DNA from: a virus
Direction: 5' to 3' (one strand)
DNA: 64,000 nt
Virus record (IMG/VR): IMGVR_UViG_3300044957_000346
Location: 1-64,000 of that record
Shown: one piece after another, positions 3,241 through 44,591 of the stretch
How positions within the stretch are numbered: the stretch's first letter is position 1
Layout of the letters: each line of letters opens with the position of its first letter
Notes under the pieces: generated by a model
Database searches by the model: none
What the model was told of the DNA's origin: nothing
What the model saw: the letters and a program-made list of their open reading frames with translations, nothing else
Position numbers and translations under genes: made by a program

Positions 3241-5280
3241 ATGTATCAAACTATCTTTATTTCTAAAAAAGACAATACTGTTCATCTATGGGACGATCAA
3301 AAAGGTTACATAAAGTTCCCATATCGACCATATGCTTATCGTAAGCGTACTGGTGGTATGTATCGCAGTATTTATGGAGATGAACTTGAAAAAGTTTATA
3401 AATTTAATCCCAAAGATCCTTCGCTATTTGAAAGTGACGTTCCAGACACCACACGCGTCTTGATCGACGCATATGAAGATAGTGACGAACCTTCTACGGG
3501 TCATAGGTTAGTTTATTACGATATCGAAGTAAGTACTGAAGGTGGGTTTCCAAAGGTTGATGAAGCTGATAAGGAAATTACAGCTATTGCTTTGTACGAT
3601 GCTACAACTGAACAATATACTGCATTTATTTTGGATAAGGATGATCGTCTACAAGAATACAAGAAGGATAATGTAGAAGTACGTAGTTTTACAAATGAAG
3701 AAAGTTTGTTGAGTCATTTTCTAACTAAATGGGAAGAGATACAACCAACTATTGCCACTGGATGGAATATTGATGAATTTGATACTCCTTATTTGTTTAA
3801 TAGAATTAAACGGGTATTTGATGATCGTGAAGCCAAAAGACTTTCTCCCATCAAAGTTTGTTATAGAAACGATTGGAGTAAAAAGATAGTTGTAGCTGGT
3901 ATATCATTTATTGACTACATGGTTTTGTACAAGAAGTGGAATATTAAACAAGAACCTAGTTATGCTTTGGGTGCGATTGGTAAGAAAGTTGTTGGGTTGG
4001 AGAAGATTACTTATAAAGGTAGTCTTGATGATTTGTATAAAGCTGATATCAATCGTTATATTGAATATAATCTCAATGACGTTAAAATTATTGTTGCGTT
4101 GGAAAAAAAGCTTCAGTTTATTGAACAAGTTAGGGCTATATGTCACAAAGGACACGTTCCGTATGATTGTTTTACGATGAGTTCACGTTTCATTGAAGGT
4201 GCAATTCTTATGTATCTTCGTCGTAAAGGACAAGTTGCTAAGAATAAGCCCGTAGATGGACGTGAAGAATATGAAAATCAGATGGAACAAGGCGAAGAAG
4301 GATTTGAAGGTGCTTATGTAAAAGATCCTGTGCCTGGCCGGTATGATTGGGTCTTTGACTTGGATCTTACTTCTATGTATCCAAATATTATTATTAGTTT
4401 GAATATTAGTCCCGAAACGAAAGTGGCAAAGGCTGAGAATTGGGATCCAGAAAAGTTTATAAAGAATGAAGTGGAAACTGTTCAAGTTGGTAGTGCTTCT
4501 TATACAAAAGACGAATTTAAACAGTTGCTTGAAAAATCACAGTATAGTATTGCTAGTAACGGTGTTATGTATAAACAAGATTATCAAGGCGTCATACCTG
4601 AAATTCTAGTCAAATGGTTCGATGAACGAAAAGAACTGCGAAAACAAGCCAAGAAACACGGTGATGCAAAAGAATGGGAAAAGTATGAGTTCTACGATCA
4701 AAGACAAAAAGTACAAAAAGTACTTCTCAATTCAATTTATGGTGTATTGGGTCTACCAATTTTCAGATTTTATGACAAGGATAATGCGAGCGCTGTTACT
4801 TTGACGGGTCAGGATATTATTAAAACTGCTAATAAAGCTATTAATCAGTATTATAAGAGAACTCTCAACGAGACTGAGAATAAAGATTATGTTATATATG
4901 TAGACACAGATTCAGTTGCGTCTGATAGCTTAGTTAAGACCGATTTATATGGTGATATTAAAATTTGTGATTTATTTAATAATCTTTCGATGAATAAAGA
5001 TGTTCAATATATTGAAGATATTCTTGGAAAAAAATTTATTTTTCCAAATAATTTGAAGATGCCTTATTACGATGAAACTGAAAAGATTGTAAAGTTTGGC
5101 AATGTAGATTATATAGAAAAACATAATGTTAAAAAAATTTCGTATAAAATTAAAACCAAAACTGGAAAAAGTATTATCGTTACTGAGGATCATTCGGTTA
5201 TGATTTTAGAAAATGACAAACTTGTTAAAAAACTTACAAAAGATTTAAAGAAAAACGATAAAATAATTTCGATTTGTTGA
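3241..5280 (+). CDS. polB: Family-B DNA polymerase N-terminal part (557 aa) fused to split-intein N-fragment (122 aa)
   Basis: ExoI YDIEV, ExoII GWNIDEFDTPY, ExoIII YNLND, motif A DLTSMYP, motif B KVLLNSIYG, motif C YVDTD followed by intein sequence; likely start ATG 3241. Confidence 0.95.
   Translation: MYQTIFISKKDNTVHLWDDQKGYIKFPYRPYAYRKRTGGMYRSIYGDELEKVYKFNPKDPSLFESDVPDTTRVLIDAYEDSDEPSTGHRLVYYDIEVSTEGGFPKVDEADKEITAIALYDATTEQYTAFILDKDDRLQEYKKDNVEVRSFTNEESLLSHFLTKWEEIQPTIATGWNIDEFDTPYLFNRIKRVFDDREAKRLSPIKVCYRNDWSKKIVVAGISFIDYMVLYKKWNIKQEPSYALGAIGKKVVGLEKITYKGSLDDLYKADINRYIEYNLNDVKIIVALEKKLQFIEQVRAICHKGHVPYDCFTMSSRFIEGAILMYLRRKGQVAKNKPVDGREEYENQMEQGEEGFEGAYVKDPVPGRYDWVFDLDLTSMYPNIIISLNISPETKVAKAENWDPEKFIKNEVETVQVGSASYTKDEFKQLLEKSQYSIASNGVMYKQDYQGVIPEILVKWFDERKELRKQAKKHGDAKEWEKYEFYDQRQKVQKVLLNSIYGVLGLPIFRFYDKDNASAVTLTGQDIIKTANKAINQYYKRTLNETENKDYVIYVDTDSVASDSLVKTDLYGDIKICDLFNNLSMNKDVQYIEDILGKKFIFPNNLKMPYYDETEKIVKFGNVDYIEKHNVKKISYKIKTKTGKSIIVTEDHSVMILENDKLVKKLTKDLKKNDKIISIC
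4912..5277 (+). mobile_element. Split intein N-fragment (Ser1) in PolB motif C
   Basis: Starts SVASDSLV right after YVDTD; block B VTEDHS; ends DLKKNDKIISIC*. Confidence 0.9.
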
Positions 5281-5326
5281 AAGATATCAATAAATTAATA
5301 AATGAAACTTTTGACTATCTCATAAA

Positions 5327-6310
5327 ATGAATTATATTATTGACGAAATTGAATCCGTAGAACCTTTAGGTGAAGTTCAAGAAGATTTTTACGACGTTGG
5401 TATGCGAGACACACCACATACATTTTTTGCTAATGATATTTTGGTTCATAATAGTTGTTTTGTTAGCGCACTGCCTATTATCGAGAAAACGATGCCTGAT
5501 ATTGATGTAAACAATGAGAAACAAATGACCAAAGCTATTTTGGAAGTTTGTACAGAAGCTCAAAATCATGTAAATGATACATTCAATATTATGGCAAAGA
5601 GAATGTTTAATGTGGTCAAACATCGTTTTGATGCAAAACAAGAGGTTATTGCCAAGACCAGTTTTTGGCTGGCTAAGAAACGATATGCTCAGTTTATCAT
5701 TAATACGGGTGGTATTGAATGTGATGAACTTGAAGTCAAGGGTATTGACGTTGTTAGAACATCTTTCCCACTTAGATTCCGTAAGTTTATGGAACAATTC
5801 TTACAAGATATTCTTCGTAAAGTTGATAAAGAAAAGATTGATGCTAATATTTTGAAGTTGGTAGAAGATTTGCCTACGTTTAATGTGATTGAGATTGCAA
5901 AGAACACTAGTGTAAAGTTTAAGAGTCAAGATGGTAAGAAAGAATATGCTCCCAAGAGTCGTAGTCCGTTTAAGTATGTGTTAGGCACACCCGCACAAGC
6001 TAAAGCAGCTATATTCTATAATGATTTACTTGAACAGTTTGGTTTGACTAGGAATACACCTAAGATTCTTCATGGCCAAAAGATTAAGTGGGTATATCTT
6101 AAACAGAATGAGTATGGTGCTGAAGGTATTGCTTTGAAAGCGGATGGTACAGATCCGGATGAAATTCTTGAGTTCATTGAGAAGTATGTAGATAGAACTG
6201 CTATGTACGAACAAGAACTTAAAGGTAAATTAAAAGATTTCTATGATGTATTGAATTGGGAATATCCATCTGTAAATGATGCAAAAGCAAACGAGTTTTT
6301 TAGTTTTTAA
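5327..6310 (+). CDS. polB: Split-intein C-fragment (42 aa) fused to family-B DNA polymerase C-terminal part (285 aa)
   Basis: MNYIIDEIESVE...FYDVGM..HTFFANDILVHN|SCF; then KKRYA and KGIDVVR motifs; ends EFFSF. Confidence 0.95.
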   Translation: MNYIIDEIESVEPLGEVQEDFYDVGMRDTPHTFFANDILVHNSCFVSALPIIEKTMPDIDVNNEKQMTKAILEVCTEAQNHVNDTFNIMAKRMFNVVKHRFDAKQEVIAKTSFWLAKKRYAQFIINTGGIECDELEVKGIDVVRTSFPLRFRKFMEQFLQDILRKVDKEKIDANILKLVEDLPTFNVIEIAKNTSVKFKSQDGKKEYAPKSRSPFKYVLGTPAQAKAAIFYNDLLEQFGLTRNTPKILHGQKIKWVYLKQNEYGAEGIALKADGTDPDEILEFIEKYVDRTAMYEQELKGKLKDFYDVLNWEYPSVNDAKANEFFSF

Positions 6311-31604: not shown

Positions 31605-33425
31605 ATGTCGGATTTAAAAAATTTAGATAAATTACCGGGTGGTGTAGGCGATGGTGTAGATGCCTCAAAATTCAATCCTATACAACTTTCTTTAGGAATA
31701 CAAATTGAAATGGAGCATACAAATGATCCTGAAATAGCACAAGAAATCGCGTGCGATCATTTATATGAAGATCCCGCTTATTATACAAAATTGGTAAAAG
31801 CTGGTTTAGCCAAAGAATTTCAACCGTCACACAACAGCGGTCTCGGTGATCCTGATTATTCAGCTAACGATGCTTCTAGAGTAGGCATCGACGGTTTAAA
31901 GAAAGGAAATATGGGTGGTAAAATTGGTAATACATCTAATGGTCAAGTTGACGGAAGAAATAGTGAACCTATTGTAAATAAAACCGTTGATATTGAATTA
32001 GACGAAAAGAAAGGTAAAAAGAAACCAAAACCAACCAATCCAACTTTATGGGCAAGAGCTAAAGCTGCTGCAAGAGCCAAATTTGATGTATATCCGTGCG
32101 TACCACTTGATAGTAAAGCTCTTACAAAAAATGGATGGAAAACATATGAAGAATTAACTATAGGCGAATTGATATTGACTTATAATATTAATAAAGATGA
32201 ATTGGAATGGAAACCAATATTAAATCTTAATTTTTTTGAAAATGCAGAGTTAGTAAGAATGTATAAACCTACAGGTTTTTCAATAAAGTGTACACCTAAT
32301 CATAAGTGGGTTGTACAAAGAGGAAATGATTATTCTATTGTAGAATTGATAGAAACAAAAGATTTACCTAAAAGAGCTAGAATAATAGTATGTGCAGAGT
32401 TAAAAAATAATGACAAAATATTATTAGAAAATTTTTCTAAAACCGATAATTGGACTGAAAATATCATTAATATGAGTTCTGAACAAAGAAAGTCGTTTTT
32501 AGCAGCATCTATAATATATGATGGGTGGGATAAGGGATCTTCTTCAAAAATAGAAGGTCGTCATACTTTTGGATTTGTACAAAAAAATTCAGATCATTTG
32601 GATGCTGGTTTATTGGCAGCGTATTTAAGTGGATATTATGTATCTGTATGTGATAGAGAATCTATAACGTCTGCAAATTTTATAAGAAACAAAAAATTTC
32701 ATTGTGTTCAAAATATAAAGTTTGAGAAAACAGAAAATGAGGATGTTTGGTGTCCGACTACCGAAAATAATACCTGGATAATGTACCAAAACGGATTAAT
32801 TACAATTACAGGCAATTCGGCTTATGCTAATGGATGGGCCGCTAAGTGGTATAAAAAACACGGTGGTGGCTGGAGAATGAGTGAAGATGCCGAATCTAGT
32901 CCAGCCGCAGCTTATGATGGACCATTTCCATCACAAGTATCTCCAGATGGACAAGGCACTTATGGAAGTGGATATGATTTTGTAGGTTTTGCGGAAAATA
33001 AAGGTACAATTATGAAAAAAGAACAACTTAAAGAAGCTATCAAAAAATTAGTAAAACAAACATTGATTGAACAAGAACAAGACGATGTTGATGTAGCAGC
33101 CGAAGATGAAACTGTTACTATTACATTGGACAAACAACTTGCACAAAAATTGCATGATTTATTAATGACTCAACTTCAACCAGAAACTCCAGCAGGTCCA
33201 GAAGATGCAAACGATGTTGTGACTGCAGAAGATGACAAAGAAACAGTTGCTGCAAATATGAGTAGCGACCGACTACCACCAGGAGCTCTTCATAAACAAC
33301 TTGGAGTTCCATCTGGAGAAAAAATACCAGCTGGTAAATTAGCAGATGCTGCTAATAAAGGCGGTAAACTTGGTAAGAGAGACAGATTAGCTCAAACATT
33401 GAGTAAGATTGCCAAGAAAAAGTAA
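31605..33425 (+). CDS. Multi-module probable head/virion protein containing an intein
   Basis: GIQIEMEHT..IACDHLYEDPAYYTKL; KFDVYP|intein|SAYANGWAAKWYK..GGGW; KKEQLKEAIKKLV; PGALHKQLGVP.GEKIP. Confidence 0.75.
   Translation: MSDLKNLDKLPGGVGDGVDASKFNPIQLSLGIQIEMEHTNDPEIAQEIACDHLYEDPAYYTKLVKAGLAKEFQPSHNSGLGDPDYSANDASRVGIDGLKKGNMGGKIGNTSNGQVDGRNSEPIVNKTVDIELDEKKGKKKPKPTNPTLWARAKAAARAKFDVYPCVPLDSKALTKNGWKTYEELTIGELILTYNINKDELEWKPILNLNFFENAELVRMYKPTGFSIKCTPNHKWVVQRGNDYSIVELIETKDLPKRARIIVCAELKNNDKILLENFSKTDNWTENIINMSSEQRKSFLAASIIYDGWDKGSSSKIEGRHTFGFVQKNSDHLDAGLLAAYLSGYYVSVCDRESITSANFIRNKKFHCVQNIKFEKTENEDVWCPTTENNTWIMYQNGLITITGNSAYANGWAAKWYKKHGGGWRMSEDAESSPAAAYDGPFPSQVSPDGQGTYGSGYDFVGFAENKGTIMKKEQLKEAIKKLVKQTLIEQEQDDVDVAAEDETVTITLDKQLAQKLHDLLMTQLQPETPAGPEDANDVVTAEDDKETVAANMSSDRLPPGALHKQLGVPSGEKIPAGKLADAANKGGKLGKRDRLAQTLSKIAKKK
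32097..32816 (+). mobile_element. Intein (240 aa) with degenerate LAGLIDADG region
   Basis: CVPLDSKALTKNGWK, block B CTPNHKW, FLAASIIYDG, VWCPTT.NNTW..ITGN|S. Confidence 0.9.
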
Positions 33426-37470: not shown

Positions 37471-37722
37471 TTACAAAGTAAATTTTGGCTTCTTCAGATC
37501 TTCTGGTAATAAATCTTGTAGAGGTGCTTGACATTTTGTGCAAACTGGTACTGCAATAGGTACTAATGCATCTTTAGTTGTGCCTGTTAGTAGTCTACTG
37601 ACTTTACGAAACATATTACCTTGTACAAATACTTCATTTCCACACTCACACGCAACTGGTGTAGTATCTTTAATACCAAAAGGAAGTGTTTGTGGAGGTT
37701 CTGGTTGTTCAAATCTATTCAT
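37471..37722 (-). CDS. Small zinc-ribbon protein
   Basis: CECG...CTKC. Confidence 0.6.
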   Translation of the reverse strand: MNRFEQPEPPQTLPFGIKDTTPVACECGNEVFVQGNMFRKVSRLLTGTTKDALVPIAVPVCTKCQAPLQDLLPEDLKKPKFTL

Positions 37723-37725
37723 ATT

Positions 37726-40164
37726 TTATCTTATTCCTTTTCTTTTTTTGTAATCGTCTAACGCGGCATTAAGTGCTTCCTGTGCTAACACACTACAGTG
37801 AATTTTAACTGGTGGAAGTCCACCCAATGCTTCTACTATGTTATCATTGCTAAAATTTTTTTCAAGATCTTCTATTGTTCTACCCTTAATAAGTTCGGTT
37901 GCCACACTAGAAGCAGCTATAGCACTGCCACAGTTATGTGACATTGCTCTTAATACAAAGAAACAGTTTGAACCTTCATTTAATTCTAAATCATAAACAA
38001 TATAATTGTCATTAGATTTTTCCAATCCTCTTAATTCATTAACATGTGTAATTTCTTTTTTTGATTTTAATGCAATTCCATTATGAATAAATCTTTGAAT
38101 ATCATTAATGCAAGTATCCAATTCATTTTTTTCAACAAACATCACATCAAAACCAGCAGATGAATAATCTTTTCTTTTTTGTATCATCCATCCTTGATTT
38201 TCACGATTTTGCATAAAATGAGGTAAATTTTTAGTATAAACTTCAATTACTTTTTTTTGACCATTTACTTTAAAATCAGGATTAAATCTTTTTCCATCTG
38301 GTGTGTTTATCCAAAACTTATAATCTCCTACGTATCTTAAATCTAGATTTTCATTTACAAATTTATTAATAAACTTTTTTTCTAATAAAGTTGGTCTTTT
38401 CCACTGATCTTTTTTAATTCCCTCTTGCCAGTTTTTAACATATTCTGGATTTTTCCACATTTTTTTACAAGAAATGCTTGTTTTAAAACTAGAAATTTCA
38501 AGATTTTTTCTTTTGTATTTTTTTTGATTCTGAGGCAATTCTTTTTGTTTCATCAATCCAAGATTATTTCTTTTTGAAATTTTTTTTGAATTGATATCTT
38601 TTAACCATTGTTGTTTTCTAACATTATTAATTGAACGGAGTTCTCGTTCTGTCATTTCCAATACTTCCATTCCAATTTCAAAATTTTCTGTTACTAATGG
38701 TCTATTATCTGCGCCCCACCAAACATGGTCTTTAGTGCAAATTATTTTTTTCCTTAATCCAAAATCTAATACACATAAATCATCGGAAGATACTTCTTTT
38801 TTAACAATATTTTTAACAGTATTTTTAACTACAGAGCTTCCATTCCATGTCCAAATTTGATCACCTATTTTTAAGTTTTTAATGGATGTATATCCGTTTG
38901 GAGTAGCAATTGGACTATTACCACCTAAGCATCCAAATGTCTTGAATCGAGCATCAATAACTTTATTGGTTTGTTCATCGATTCTGAGACTAATCTTCAT
39001 TATATCACCACAATTTTTAACGACTATTCCTTCTTCAACATTCAGGGTGATACGTGATAAAACAATATAATTATTATTTTCCTCAACTTGTAATGTATAT
39101 GTTTGAATTTCTCCAATATATTCTCGTTTGATTATATTGTGATTATAATGTTTGCATTCATCAAAAAACTCAGTCCATGATGGAAATCTTGTTGATAAAG
39201 ACTGTGGAATTTTATTTTGTTTGGCATAAGATCGCCAAAGATTAGCGGTCAACTTACCGTGTTGTTTATATAAATTATTTCCTATTTTGAATAAATCTTC
39301 ATCCGAATATCCTAACCACTTCGGATTTTTATTTCTCGGCTTAGAAGCGAATTTATATTTCCATTCATCGGACGTTTTATGATAACAATTATTATTTCCT
39401 TTTTGTCTTAGAGATATTAACTTCCTCTGTTCTTCGGTGGCCAATTTTGAAAAATGATTTGCCAATTCACTTTTGTCATCAAACTTGTTAATGTTTTCCA
39501 ATAAAATGTCTTTATTAATACATACATCAAATGTTTTTGGTCTATCCCAATTTGGGTTTGTCAACTTAGTATGATCTGATTTTGGTAATCCTTGCAAATT
39601 ACTAATACAGTTATTTTGTTTGTTTTCATCTATGTGATGTATATCATATCCTATAGTATTATGGTCAGGATTGTGAAATTTATAAATTTCAATGTGTTCT
39701 TTCCTATGTTTGGTTTTTCTAATTTCCCAATATCCATTTTTGATTATTTTTCGTTTGAATGGATAAATAGAATCATCACTTGTTAATAATTTATTTTCAA
39801 CATATTGTTTTTTAGGACGAGTGAGAAATTTATGATCTTCCGTACATGTTATTGTACCGCCATCATTTAATGTCAATTTATATACTTTTTTGACACCAGA
39901 TACAACTCCTATAGCATTTTTTATTTCAAATAAATTTGTTTTAGTATTAAAGCTCCAAACAGGGGTTATTTTGTTTACTAAATTTTTAATAGGAGTATGT
40001 AAATTACCATCCGCTGTTGCTATTAAAGTATCACCATCAAAACATGCTGCAGCCCCTACTTCACCTATAGCGTTTGCTTCTTTTATGTCACCCATATTTC
40101 TGGGATTCATAAAATGATCCATTACAGTTTGATTATATAGAGTATAAGATTCATTCATACCCAT
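37726..40164 (-). CDS. iscU: Fe-S cluster scaffold IscU/NifU interrupted by two inteins
   Basis: Y..VMDHFMNPRN.G..GEVGAAA|int|CGD.MK..DARFKTFG|int|CGSAIAASS..LPPVKIHCSVLA; spliced product 135 aa. Confidence 0.95.
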   Translation of the reverse strand: MGMNESYTLYNQTVMDHFMNPRNMGDIKEANAIGEVGAAACFDGDTLIATADGNLHTPIKNLVNKITPVWSFNTKTNLFEIKNAIGVVSGVKKVYKLTLNDGGTITCTEDHKFLTRPKKQYVENKLLTSDDSIYPFKRKIIKNGYWEIRKTKHRKEHIEIYKFHNPDHNTIGYDIHHIDENKQNNCISNLQGLPKSDHTKLTNPNWDRPKTFDVCINKDILLENINKFDDKSELANHFSKLATEEQRKLISLRQKGNNNCYHKTSDEWKYKFASKPRNKNPKWLGYSDEDLFKIGNNLYKQHGKLTANLWRSYAKQNKIPQSLSTRFPSWTEFFDECKHYNHNIIKREYIGEIQTYTLQVEENNNYIVLSRITLNVEEGIVVKNCGDIMKISLRIDEQTNKVIDARFKTFGCLGGNSPIATPNGYTSIKNLKIGDQIWTWNGSSVVKNTVKNIVKKEVSSDDLCVLDFGLRKKIICTKDHVWWGADNRPLVTENFEIGMEVLEMTERELRSINNVRKQQWLKDINSKKISKRNNLGLMKQKELPQNQKKYKRKNLEISSFKTSISCKKMWKNPEYVKNWQEGIKKDQWKRPTLLEKKFINKFVNENLDLRYVGDYKFWINTPDGKRFNPDFKVNGQKKVIEVYTKNLPHFMQNRENQGWMIQKRKDYSSAGFDVMFVEKNELDTCINDIQRFIHNGIALKSKKEITHVNELRGLEKSNDNYIVYDLELNEGSNCFFVLRAMSHNCGSAIAASSVATELIKGRTIEDLEKNFSNDNIVEALGGLPPVKIHCSVLAQEALNAALDDYKKRKGIR
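37933..38931 (-). mobile_element. Intein 2 of IscU (333 aa) with Vsr/DUF559-like endonuclease
   Basis: CLGGNSPIATPNG, CTKDH, PTLLE..FNPDF..VIEV, VYDLEL..FF..SHN|C. Confidence 0.9.
39013..40044 (-). mobile_element. Intein 1 of IscU (344 aa) with HNH endonuclease
   Basis: CFDGDTLI, CTEDHKF, DIHHIDENKQNN..NL..H, YTLQVEENNNY..VVKN|C. Confidence 0.9.
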
Positions 40165-41927: not shown

Positions 41928-42662
41928 TTAAAATCTTTGTTTTAATATCTTCTTTCCATCTTGTAGAATATCTGGATCAAATACCTTTGGACCTTTACTT
42001 ATATAACCTTTACCACATGTAAATGTGCAGTTATAACAAAGTAACCTAATGTTTTCCAATTTATGGTTTTTGTTATTGCCATCTTCAAAATTTAATAATA
42101 ATGGTATTTTACCATCCGTGAGTCTTCGTTCGTGATAACCACATTGTTCACACTCTGATTTTTTAATACCACTTCTTATGAGTTTATCCTTTAATCTGTG
42201 TATTGGGAAATCTGGATGTTTACCATCTAATATATCTTGTATTGGAAATTTACCTTTATTAGGATCTATAGGCCCCCTACAACATACACCTTTCGTAACA
42301 GGCCATCCTTTGGTTTTGTGTATGCCGTATAGTTTTGCATATTTCTTGAATGTGATATAACTTATACCAAGTAGTTTTGCAGCTTTTTTTGCGGTAGGTG
42401 CTCTATCAATTGCTTCTTGAACTTCCGATTGTAATATTGGTTTTTGGTTTCTACTGTGAGTTTTTCTTTTTGGATATAATTGTTCGGAAAATTGTTTTTC
42501 CAAATGAGGTATGGTGACTCCTTTTGATTGAAGTATTTTAAATTCTTCTATCTCATTTCTTACATCTTGACCCAACTGACTTAAACTAAGTAATTCTTCA
42601 ACTTTGCTTTTAAGCTGGTCAAGTTCTTGTAACTTTTTTTCTATCTGTGATTGATCCATCAT
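41928..42662 (-). CDS. HTH plus HNH-fold protein
   Basis: AAKLLGISY HTH; CEQCG..LNFEDGN..NH.LENIRLLCYNC (catalytic His appears replaced). Confidence 0.7.
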   Translation of the reverse strand: MMDQSQIEKKLQELDQLKSKVEELLSLSQLGQDVRNEIEEFKILQSKGVTIPHLEKQFSEQLYPKRKTHSRNQKPILQSEVQEAIDRAPTAKKAAKLLGISYITFKKYAKLYGIHKTKGWPVTKGVCCRGPIDPNKGKFPIQDILDGKHPDFPIHRLKDKLIRSGIKKSECEQCGYHERRLTDGKIPLLLNFEDGNNKNHKLENIRLLCYNCTFTCGKGYISKGPKVFDPDILQDGKKILKQRF

Positions 42663-42994
42663 GTTTTTGAAGCCGATAACGGTTCTTTAGCTAAATCTAT
42701 CGAGGTATTCATATAAAACACTTTCCTCAACACTTCGGCTCTAGATGGTGATCCGGCATTTAATAAAACTTTATATGTATTTATAATTTTTTTCTTTGCG
42801 TTTTTTCTTTTGAGTGATTTGACAAACATCACAGGATTTACTAAAAAATCGGAATCCCCCTCAATTGTTTTTTTAATTTTAAATTCAACACCTCTTGTAC
42901 ATGCCTCGACATGTGGATCTGCAAATATAGATTCGTCAACATATACTTCTAACGACCAATCTGCTGTACTAACTGAATAATTATTTTTATACAT
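42659..42994 (-). CDS. Hypothetical protein
   Basis: Overlapping operon ORF. Confidence 0.55.
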   Translation of the reverse strand: MYKNNYSVSTADWSLEVYVDESIFADPHVEACTRGVEFKIKKTIEGDSDFLVNPVMFVKSLKRKNAKKKIINTYKVLLNAGSPSRAEVLRKVFYMNTSIDLAKEPLSASKT

Positions 42995-44591
42995 AGTTCA
43001 TATCCCCGTCGTTAAGTAAATCCAAGTTGGTTAGTTTTTGATTAACACTATCACAAACTTTTTCTTCAACGGTATTAGCAACAAATACAATTTTCTGTAT
43101 ACTCTTGCTTTTTGCACCATCACGCCAGACTCTACCAGTGGCTTGACGCATGTTTACAGCTGAATATGATGGGCTAATTAATGCCAATCTTGGATGTTTA
43201 CCGGTTATATCGTGTAAGCTTAACCCAGCACCACCCGCTGCTAGATTTAGTAGTATCACGCGTTGTTTATCACTTTGAAAATCATCAATGCTTTGTTGAC
43301 GAGTTTTTGCGTACTTAGCTTCACCATTCACAATACATTTGGTATTTAGTCTTTGTGATAAAGCTTCTATAGTTTCTGAAAAGTTCAAAAATACAGCAAT
43401 ACTCATATTATTTTCTAAAGCATCTTCAACCATTTCAACAAATAGGGGAACTTTTGTCATTTCTACCTTTTGCCTGGATCTCAGAATAGCTGTAAGTTCG
43501 CTGCTCTTTTTATCTTTCTTTAGTAACTTTTCAATCTTAAGCAATTCAAGTCGCATTTCATCATACGCGGCATTAATTTTATCCTGATCTTCTTTATCCA
43601 TTTCATAACAGTTTGCGATGATTTGACTTTCTGGAAAGTTTGGAATTGTATCTCTACTCAATCTTACGCCTCTGTTTGTAAATATATCGGTGCTTAATTT
43701 AGTTAATGATTTGCGATCACCTGTGAATTCCATTCCGAATCTACCTCTTACCACACCATGTGCATAAGCCCAATCATAATATTGTTTGTTGTTATTAAAC
43801 AACTTTATACACTGTCCTACAGTACGAAGTTCAAGTGGATTTGTTGCCATAGTAGCGCTACAAAATAACATCTTATATCCAGATTTAAGCGCGGCCATAC
43901 AAGTTTCACTGTTCTTGGTTTTTGCGTTCTTTAATTTTTGAGCTTCATCCCAAACAATCAAAGTATTCTTAGGAAGCTTCCAAACAAATTCTTTACGACG
44001 AGTGTCTCTTCGTTTAACTATAGATACATAGATGCTATCTGATTTACCTATACGAAGAGTTTCATAATTAACAATGCCAATACAATTGCCCCAATACTTA
44101 AAGTGATTTTTTATAACTCTTTTCCAACTTTCCATGACTGCTTTTGGACATACAACCATAATATCCACATTTAATTCTCTAGCAACGGCGGTGGCTGTAT
44201 ATGTTTTGCCAACGCCGACATCGCTTCCGTCTACCGCAGCCCCCCACTTTTTAATTGAGGCTACTATTTTGCTTACCGCATCAACTTGCCACGGTCTTAG
44301 ACCCGTTGTATTTTTAACCTCATATAAAGGCAAAGATTCATCTTGTTTTTCATTGGCTTTTTTGGGTTCTTTAAACAGTGTTGGATTATCTTTAATCTCG
44401 GTTAGAATCCAATTATCTCCCAATTTTGTTACGCCATATCCACGATCCTTTAATATGAGTCTATTTACCTTCCAGTAGGTAAAAAATTGGTTTAAATATG
44501 CTTGAGGTATAACCCAACTTCTTTGAAACAGAACATCGCCGTTTTTCTCAATTTGAACTGGATCAGACCATTGTATGTTCAAATTAATCAT
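42987..44591 (-). CDS. Superfamily 2 (SNF2-like) helicase
   Basis: LRPWQ, GVGKT, DEAQ, SAT, GGAGLSL, QATGRVWR. Confidence 0.9.
   Translation of the reverse strand: MINLNIQWSDPVQIEKNGDVLFQRSWVIPQAYLNQFFTYWKVNRLILKDRGYGVTKLGDNWILTEIKDNPTLFKEPKKANEKQDESLPLYEVKNTTGLRPWQVDAVSKIVASIKKWGAAVDGSDVGVGKTYTATAVARELNVDIMVVCPKAVMESWKRVIKNHFKYWGNCIGIVNYETLRIGKSDSIYVSIVKRRDTRRKEFVWKLPKNTLIVWDEAQKLKNAKTKNSETCMAALKSGYKMLFCSATMATNPLELRTVGQCIKLFNNNKQYYDWAYAHGVVRGRFGMEFTGDRKSLTKLSTDIFTNRGVRLSRDTIPNFPESQIIANCYEMDKEDQDKINAAYDEMRLELLKIEKLLKKDKKSSELTAILRSRQKVEMTKVPLFVEMVEDALENNMSIAVFLNFSETIEALSQRLNTKCIVNGEAKYAKTRQQSIDDFQSDKQRVILLNLAAGGAGLSLHDITGKHPRLALISPSYSAVNMRQATGRVWRDGAKSKSIQKIVFVANTVEEKVCDSVNQKLTNLDLLNDGDMNYV

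Follow-up and report, generated by a model that had tools for sequence, protein, structure and literature searches.

We analysed a 64,000-nt stretch of viral DNA (hereafter the window), which comprises positions 1–64,000 of IMG/VR record IMGVR_UViG_3300044957_000346; all coordinates count from its first letter. On its minus strand the window encodes a phage IscU, a scaffold protein for iron–sulphur (Fe-S) cluster assembly, whose gene carries two in-frame inteins, each placed directly before a cysteine that serves as a cluster ligand. Our analysis makes it likely that this iscU, an auxiliary, indispensable and highly conserved phage gene, has been colonised independently by two selfish mobile inteins and that it is spliced to a normal IscU. 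We base this reading on the anatomy of the gene and the folds of its inserts, on allele polymorphism at the locus, and on signs of purifying selection and recent horizontal transfer in the inteins themselves.

An iscU gene with inteins at two ligand cysteines

The iscU open reading frame (ORF) is made up of the following parts, listed in the direction of translation:

37726–40164 (−): iscU precursor ORF, 812 aa plus stop, frame uninterrupted
40045–40164 (−): N-extein, 40 aa (residues 1–40), C-terminal ...GEVGAAA, matching ISCU residues 3–36
39013–40044 (−): intein 1 (site a, before Cys37), 344 aa, CFDGD...VVKN, +1 Cys
39568–39696 (−): HNH endonuclease motif of intein 1, ORF residues 157–199, Pfam HNH_3 and PHROG HNH families
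38932–39012 (−): middle extein, 27 aa, from Cys37 (CGD) to Gly62 (...FKTFG)
37933–38931 (−): intein 2 (site b, before Cys63), 333 aa, CLGGN...SHN, +1 Cys
38077–38400 (−): predicted in-frame Vsr/I-Bth0305I-like nuclease domain of intein 2, intein residues about 178–285, PD-(D/E)xK superfamily
37729–37932 (−): C-extein, 68 aa, from Cys63 (CGSAIA) via LPPVKIHCS (His105/Cys106) to the protein end

The ORF starts 2 nt past the stop codon of the upstream GDP-mannose 4,6-dehydratase gene (gmd), and Pfam NifU_N recognises it with 132 bits (cut-off 22) in three stretches that jointly span profile positions 2–124 of 127. A preliminary description of this DNA had divided the protein into segments of 40, 344, 27, 333 and 68 aa and put the intein share at 83 %; translation of the segments returned all of these figures (677 of 812 residues being intein). 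The same description had named the Cys of CGD and the Cys of GCGS, two of the three cluster ligands, as the +1 nucleophiles and had called the LPPVKIHC motif intact. This is borne out by alignment with solved ISCU/IscU chains, in which residue 385 (Cys of CGD) corresponds to Cys37 and residue 745 (Cys of CGS) to Cys63. The cluster ligands of IscU are Cys37, Cys63 and Cys106, and the motifs CGD, GCGS and LPPVKIHCS that carry them are all present, at residues 37, 63 and 105–106 of the solved chains, with the LPPVK chaperone motif kept. Joined across both inteins, the predicted spliced product is 135 aa long and aligns with five intein-free alleles at 81–90 % identity without internal gap; its junction peptides are the same as theirs. 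The G+C content is 26–28 % in the inteins, 36 % in the exteins and 34 % in gmd.

By their motifs, both inteins belong to class 1, each having Cys1, a TxxH block, a terminal Asn and a Cys+1 together with its own putative in-frame homing endonuclease (HNH in intein 1, Vsr/I-Bth0305I-like in intein 2). We infer splicing, nuclease activity and IscU function. The ~93-kDa precursor would excise both inteins after translation and join the three exteins into the 135-aa IscU, restoring Cys37, Asp39, Cys63, His105, Cys106 and the LPPVK motif. Where an intein-bearing and an intein-free phage coinfect a cell, the endonuclease would cut the empty site and repair would copy the intein in. The position before ligand cysteines would follow because an intein needs a +1 nucleophile and because homing endonucleases are best maintained where their target is the most conserved DNA of an indispensable gene.

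Allele states and homing at a shared locus

A common gene order (snf2, three small genes, gmd, iscU, a gene for an 83-aa Cys protein, nudix, glycosyltransferase, lysozyme-like) was found in 13/13 related viral or metagenome loci. Since every one of them carries iscU in this order, the gene is fixed within the group. It is common enough there to sustain homing, as the preliminary description had supposed and as the divergence of inteins against their flanks (below) shows. At this one syntenic locus, iscU occurs in all four possible states:

no intein: loci L006–L012
intein 1 (a) only: L019–L022, P0006 and P0014
intein 2 (b) only: L004, L005, P0002–5 and P0007–9
both inteins: the window

Comparison of the window with L004, a carrier of intein 2 only, revealed DNA identity of 95 % across intein 2 (synonymous divergence, dS, 0.15) against 74 % in the extein just upstream and 63–74 % in gmd, snf2 and the 244-aa gene h244 (dS 1.3–2.3), with identity jumping ~10 nt before the intein 2 junction. 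A similar contrast was obtained for intein 1 between L019 and L020, where the intein DNA is 94 % identical (dS 0.24) and the exteins are 65 % identical (dS 1.9). Inteins that are ~95 % identical amid flanks that are ~74 % identical and saturated at synonymous sites indicate recent homing between diverged phages, which is still ongoing. Both inteins are under purifying selection, as the ratio of nonsynonymous to synonymous divergence (dN/dS) is 0.08–0.09 for intein 1 and 0.10–0.32 for intein 2.

Within the phage group, inteins are polymorphic in several genes. In L004, the SNF2-type helicase (L004:229–2859) contains a LAGLIDADG intein of ~340 aa within its Walker A motif, and the orthologue in the window, at 42987–44591 (−), is without it. 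Three genes upstream of iscU, at 41928–42662 (−), the window also has a free-standing HNH endonuclease gene (PHROG 14736, E value 1e-15) that is kept in the syntenic relatives. Directly downstream of iscU, at 37471–37722 (−), lies the gene for the 83-aa protein, which has four cysteines (CxC ... CxxC) and belongs to no Pfam or PHROG family; relatives have it at the same position at about 52 % identity, and a functional tie to IscU is possible.

Two intein families and the alternative explanations

Intein 1 displays C41 (Cys1), block B TEDH, terminal N384 and +1 C385, and scores 37.5 bits with Pfam Intein_splicing (cut-off 35.8). The HNH nuclease named for it in the preliminary description is recognised by Pfam HNH_3 at 27.8–29.9 bits, above the cut-off of 24.8. 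The whole intein, HNH part included, can be aligned end to end with HNH inteins of phage ribonucleotide reductases at 23–31 % identity; it is a member of the phage HNH-intein family.

The corresponding residues of intein 2 are C412 (Cys1), block B TKDH, HN743–744 and +1 C745. Pfam HINT models match it weakly, below their own cut-offs. Its AlphaFold2 model (predicted local distance difference test score 82.6) shares the HINT fold with solved mini-inteins at Z 16–18, both lobes being aligned, and a sequence profile of the HINT part has the gp41-1 intein as its best solved match (E value 4e-8). The HINT fold is complete. The nuclease domain was modelled separately and compared with ~48,000 representative chains. 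The top match was the catalytic domain of I-Bth0305I (3r3p_B: Z 10.6, root-mean-square deviation 3.4, 95 of 98 residues, 23 % identity), followed by DUF559-like 3hrl (Z 9.0) and Vsr 1cw0 (Z 8.2), and a second, independent structure search with Foldseek again placed 3r3p_B first (template-modelling score 0.66). The fold therefore backs the Vsr/DUF559-like nuclease that the preliminary description had read from the letters. Among 42 family members (33–90 % identical to the window copy), E184, PDF218–220, K227, EVYTK230–234 and R244 are conserved, and the conservation of K227, E230, K234 and R244 amounts to a PD-ExK-like signature. Taken with the model, this suggests a Vsr/I-Bth0305I-like nuclease of the PD-(D/E)xK superfamily with a signature of its own. 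No second copy of the nuclease was found in the 74-kb record of which the window is part, including between its split-intein halves. We regard it as an even call whether, among contiguous inteins, intein 2 is the first to be described that carries a Vsr-like homing endonuclease in frame.

Three stand-alone metagenome proteins of 312–334 aa (P0032, P0042 and P0078) are 31–38 % identical to intein 2 over nearly its full length, HINT lobes and Vsr-like nuclease alike; P0032 and P0042 have no Cys1, no terminal His-Asn and no exteins. Judged by sequence, these proteins may be free-standing endonucleases descended from the intein 2 type. A free-standing endonuclease derived from an intein is known in yeast HO, which stems from the VMA1 intein.

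Several observations weigh against a pair of fully competent mobile inteins. The penultimate residue of intein 1 is Lys, so that the block G His is absent. Since Lys or Arg is the rule in the intein 1 family, whose members end in [KR]N throughout, including recently transferred copies, the Lys is a family trait and no lesion. Natural inteins without a penultimate His are known, for example the DnaE split inteins, so the Lys is compatible with splicing. Through an in-frame deletion, intein 1 (344 aa) also lacks 20 residues that are found in all close relatives (364 aa). These form a putative helix-turn-helix-like segment downstream of the HNH motif, in the endonuclease part and outside the HINT lobes. 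In addition, the window's intein 1 is more diverged from its relatives' copies (dS about 0.9–1.0) and is older relative to the copies found. On account of the deletion and the higher divergence, the endonuclease of intein 1 may be decaying while splicing is kept. For intein 2, Pfam finds no nuclease even at an E value of 10, and phmmer of the nuclease domain against PDB sequences returned chance-level matches only; fold comparison alone identified the nuclease. Conservation among the 42 members speaks against a literal EDxHD motif: Glu184 and Asp219 are conserved, and the candidate His239 and the candidate second Asp, Asp251, vary.

The Lys and the deletion in intein 1, together with a middle extein of just 27 aa between two large domains, could also be read as signs of a dead gene, in which one or both inteins splice no more and the ORF is a decaying remnant. 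We consider this very improbable, given that the frame of 812 codons is open throughout, that no nucleophile, TxxH block or terminal Asn has been lost, and that dN/dS is about 0.1 across the inteins; moreover, the [KR]N ending is common to a whole family with members in recent transit, and the deletion spares the HINT lobes. Equally, the double allele could be an assembly chimera made by joining reads of an a-only and a b-only strain within the middle extein, which is short and conserved, and both kinds of single-intein allele do coexist in metagenomes. Such an artefact is very improbable, however, as the identical 812-aa protein is recorded from 5 contigs, the longest of 121 kb. The window's intein 1 is, moreover, a distinct variant, marked by its length of 344 aa and its deletion, with 83 % nucleotide identity to the a-only alleles found and a copy of none of them, and other lineages too carry both inteins.

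A different role for the inteins would be that of an adaptive conditional switch, in which oxidants or thiophilic metals (Zn, Cu) stall splicing and the scaffold becomes available only in a reducing, metal-balanced cell. In keeping with this, all four splicing nucleophiles are Cys and both +1 Cys are cluster ligands; an extra Cys stands directly before the block B Thr in both inteins and is kept in at least 80 % of the intein 2 family. There are precedents in the M. tuberculosis SufB intein and the two M. smegmatis DnaB inteins, which respond to oxidative or metal stress (PMC6195587, PMC8891592). Yet close relatives have no intein or one intein at the same locus, the inteins bear the mark of recent horizontal spread rather than of clade-wide fixation, and selfish inteins generally sit at conserved catalytic residues in any case. 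Cysteine nucleophiles are the one prerequisite of a stress-sensing intein that we see here. Because close relatives form a patchwork of empty, a, b and a+b alleles, selfish mobility is favoured over a conserved regulatory device, and we rate the switch as unlikely. It is similarly doubtful that the pair acts as a two-key post-translational lock, IscU forming only after both unrelated Cys-dependent inteins have spliced and their +1 Cys have become cluster ligands; we hold this to be less probable than intein 2 being the first in-frame Vsr-like case. If true, the lock would make the Fe-S assembly driven by the phage depend on redox and metal conditions inside the infected cell.

Occurrence of IscU inteins, genome context and known systems

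When 1.84 billion cluster representatives were searched exhaustively with HMMER, IscU proteins with inserts at site a, site b or both turned up in dozens of clusters formed at 50 % identity. Two inteins are present in at least five further IscU lineages: P0017, P0019 and P0034 have a pair of mini-inteins each, and P0052 and P0140 combine a mini-intein with one of the LAGLIDADG type. IscU proteins of other types (P0060, P0091 and P0147) have LAGLIDADG inteins at these two sites as well, and two NCBI entries from metagenome-assembled genomes (MAGs), MBI5554546.1 (Elusimicrobia) and MFA5085319.1 (Omnitrophota), are intein-bearing IscU labelled 'iron-sulfur cluster assembly scaffold protein'. No intein before the third ligand, Cys106, was present among the IscU proteins retrieved. 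The N termini of P0016, P0017 and P0019, in which site a or both sites are occupied, are extended by long basic segments resembling organelle presequences; a eukaryote, a giant virus or a miscalled start may lie behind them.

The search also revealed a second viral lineage, in which a proteobacterial-type IscU with an intein 2 homologue occurs in more than 25 IMG/VR contigs alongside ten intein-free alleles. A bacterial origin of this type was rejected because of its abundance in IMG/VR and because, of its two 'MAG' matches, one is a contig of 2 kb and the other a contig that carries phage-like genes. One contig binned to a Fischerella MAG (L014:8001–8852) carries an iscU with a mini-intein at site b that lacks exactly the nuclease module, followed by iscA; the contig has phage-like genes (ligase, fibre-like proteins) and is probably a misbinned phage contig. 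The L014 mini-intein, with its nuclease module lost, and the double mini-inteins of P0017, P0019 and P0034 are degenerate stages of the homing cycle.

Our literature search, in which subscription journals mostly fell outside the range covered, found no paper on inteins in IscU or NifU. Inteins at sites a and b of IscU thus seem to be common in sequence databases and apparently unpublished. The preliminary description, which knew of no described double-intein IscU, accordingly stands with respect to papers, although the double state is not unique, being shared by the five lineages named above. The search of IscU homologues for HINT inserts, which it had proposed as a check, gave many at these two sites in sequence databases.

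The feature is an ordinary kind of element, the intein, in a seemingly unpublished host gene that is frequent in databases. IscU appears to be a widespread intein host, with insertions at ligand cysteines in phages, candidate-phyla bacteria and archaea. What the window contributes is the occurrence in a phage, a pair of full-size inteins from different families with 27 residues between them, the evidence for ongoing homing and the in-frame Vsr-like nuclease. Alleles with no, one or both inteins share a single syntenic locus, which makes the phage population a clear natural example of homing. The 135-aa protein, of well-understood chemistry and holding two unrelated, apparently orthogonal Cys inteins, is in addition a compact test case for whether splicing can gate a metallo-scaffold.

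The window is part of a 74-kb record for which CheckV estimates 21 % completeness and which contains a T4-type PolB, a clamp loader, an endolysin and many sugar-modifying genes; we read this gene content as that of a large uncultivated phage. The record is dense in inteins, with six matches to the Pfam intein model, among them split pieces within PolB and the clamp loader and the insert at about 32100–32900 described below. Matches at 5077–5452, 14989–15234 and 16753–17001 (+) of the window fall in PolB/clamp-loader pieces and are consistent with split inteins. A 606-aa ORF without family match at 31605–33425 (+) has an intein-like insert at about 32100–32900 (Pfam Intein_splicing at 32130–32450). 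The insert follows ...FDVYP with Cys as its first residue, shows TPNH as block B and closes with ...ITGN ahead of a Ser. No other Fe-S genes were detected in the 74-kb record (no IscA/HesB, no radical SAM), a weak absence since the record covers ~21 % of the genome.

Viral iscU is a described auxiliary gene (PMC5332604), and the phage IscU of the window matches PHROG 8429. The iscU of marine T4-like phages reported in that study likewise encodes the scaffold in large phages whose replication genes are T4-like, but inteins are not reported there. The LAGLIDADG and mini-inteins in IscU of uncultivated bacteria and archaea, the Elusimicrobia and Omnitrophota MAGs among them, sit at the same sites, before Cys37 and Cys63, and differ from those of the window in intein family, in nuclease type and in their cellular hosts; double occupancy of both sites recurs in P0052.

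Among inteins with studied splicing, that of M. tuberculosis SufB (Pps1) resembles the iscU inteins in residing in an Fe-S assembly protein and in using Cys nucleophiles; the stress sensitivity of its splicing has been a subject of study (PMC8891592). It is, however, a single intein in a cellular protein, in SufB of the SUF system as opposed to IscU of ISC. M. smegmatis DnaB also has two different inteins in one protein (DnaBi1 and DnaBi2), which splice independently and differ in their stress responses (PMC6195587), but DnaB is a helicase with much longer exteins and no phage context, whereas the iscU inteins are just 27 residues apart.

The closest known counterparts of intein 1 are the HNH inteins of NrdA in Synechococcus phage S-CBWM1 and Dickeya LIMEstone-like phages, which have an in-frame HNH and align over their full length at 23–31 % identity, yet differ in extein and insertion site; the IscU family, moreover, ends in Lys/Arg-Asn. 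For intein 2, the best structural match of the nuclease is I-Bth0305I and the best solved sequence match of the HINT part is gp41-1, one of the split inteins of the GOS 'fractured genes', both of them phage-associated (PMC3239194, PMC2677866). In the known Vsr-like cases, the nuclease is free-standing in an intron, lies between split-intein halves or is antisense (10.1101/2025.01.02.630785), whereas that of intein 2 is in-frame and contiguous and its EDxHD motif is not literal. According to the 2025 survey of actinobacteriophage inteins (10.1101/2025.01.02.630785), Vsr-like nucleases associated with inteins were known only from split-intein loci (Dassa et al. 2009), to which the survey adds the antisense cases. 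The 'fractured gene' model of Dassa et al. (2009) foresaw in-frame capture of the nuclease as a possible outcome. Intein 2 fits this predicted end state, and an in-frame Vsr-like nuclease in a contiguous intein would fill a predicted step in the acquisition of nucleases by inteins.

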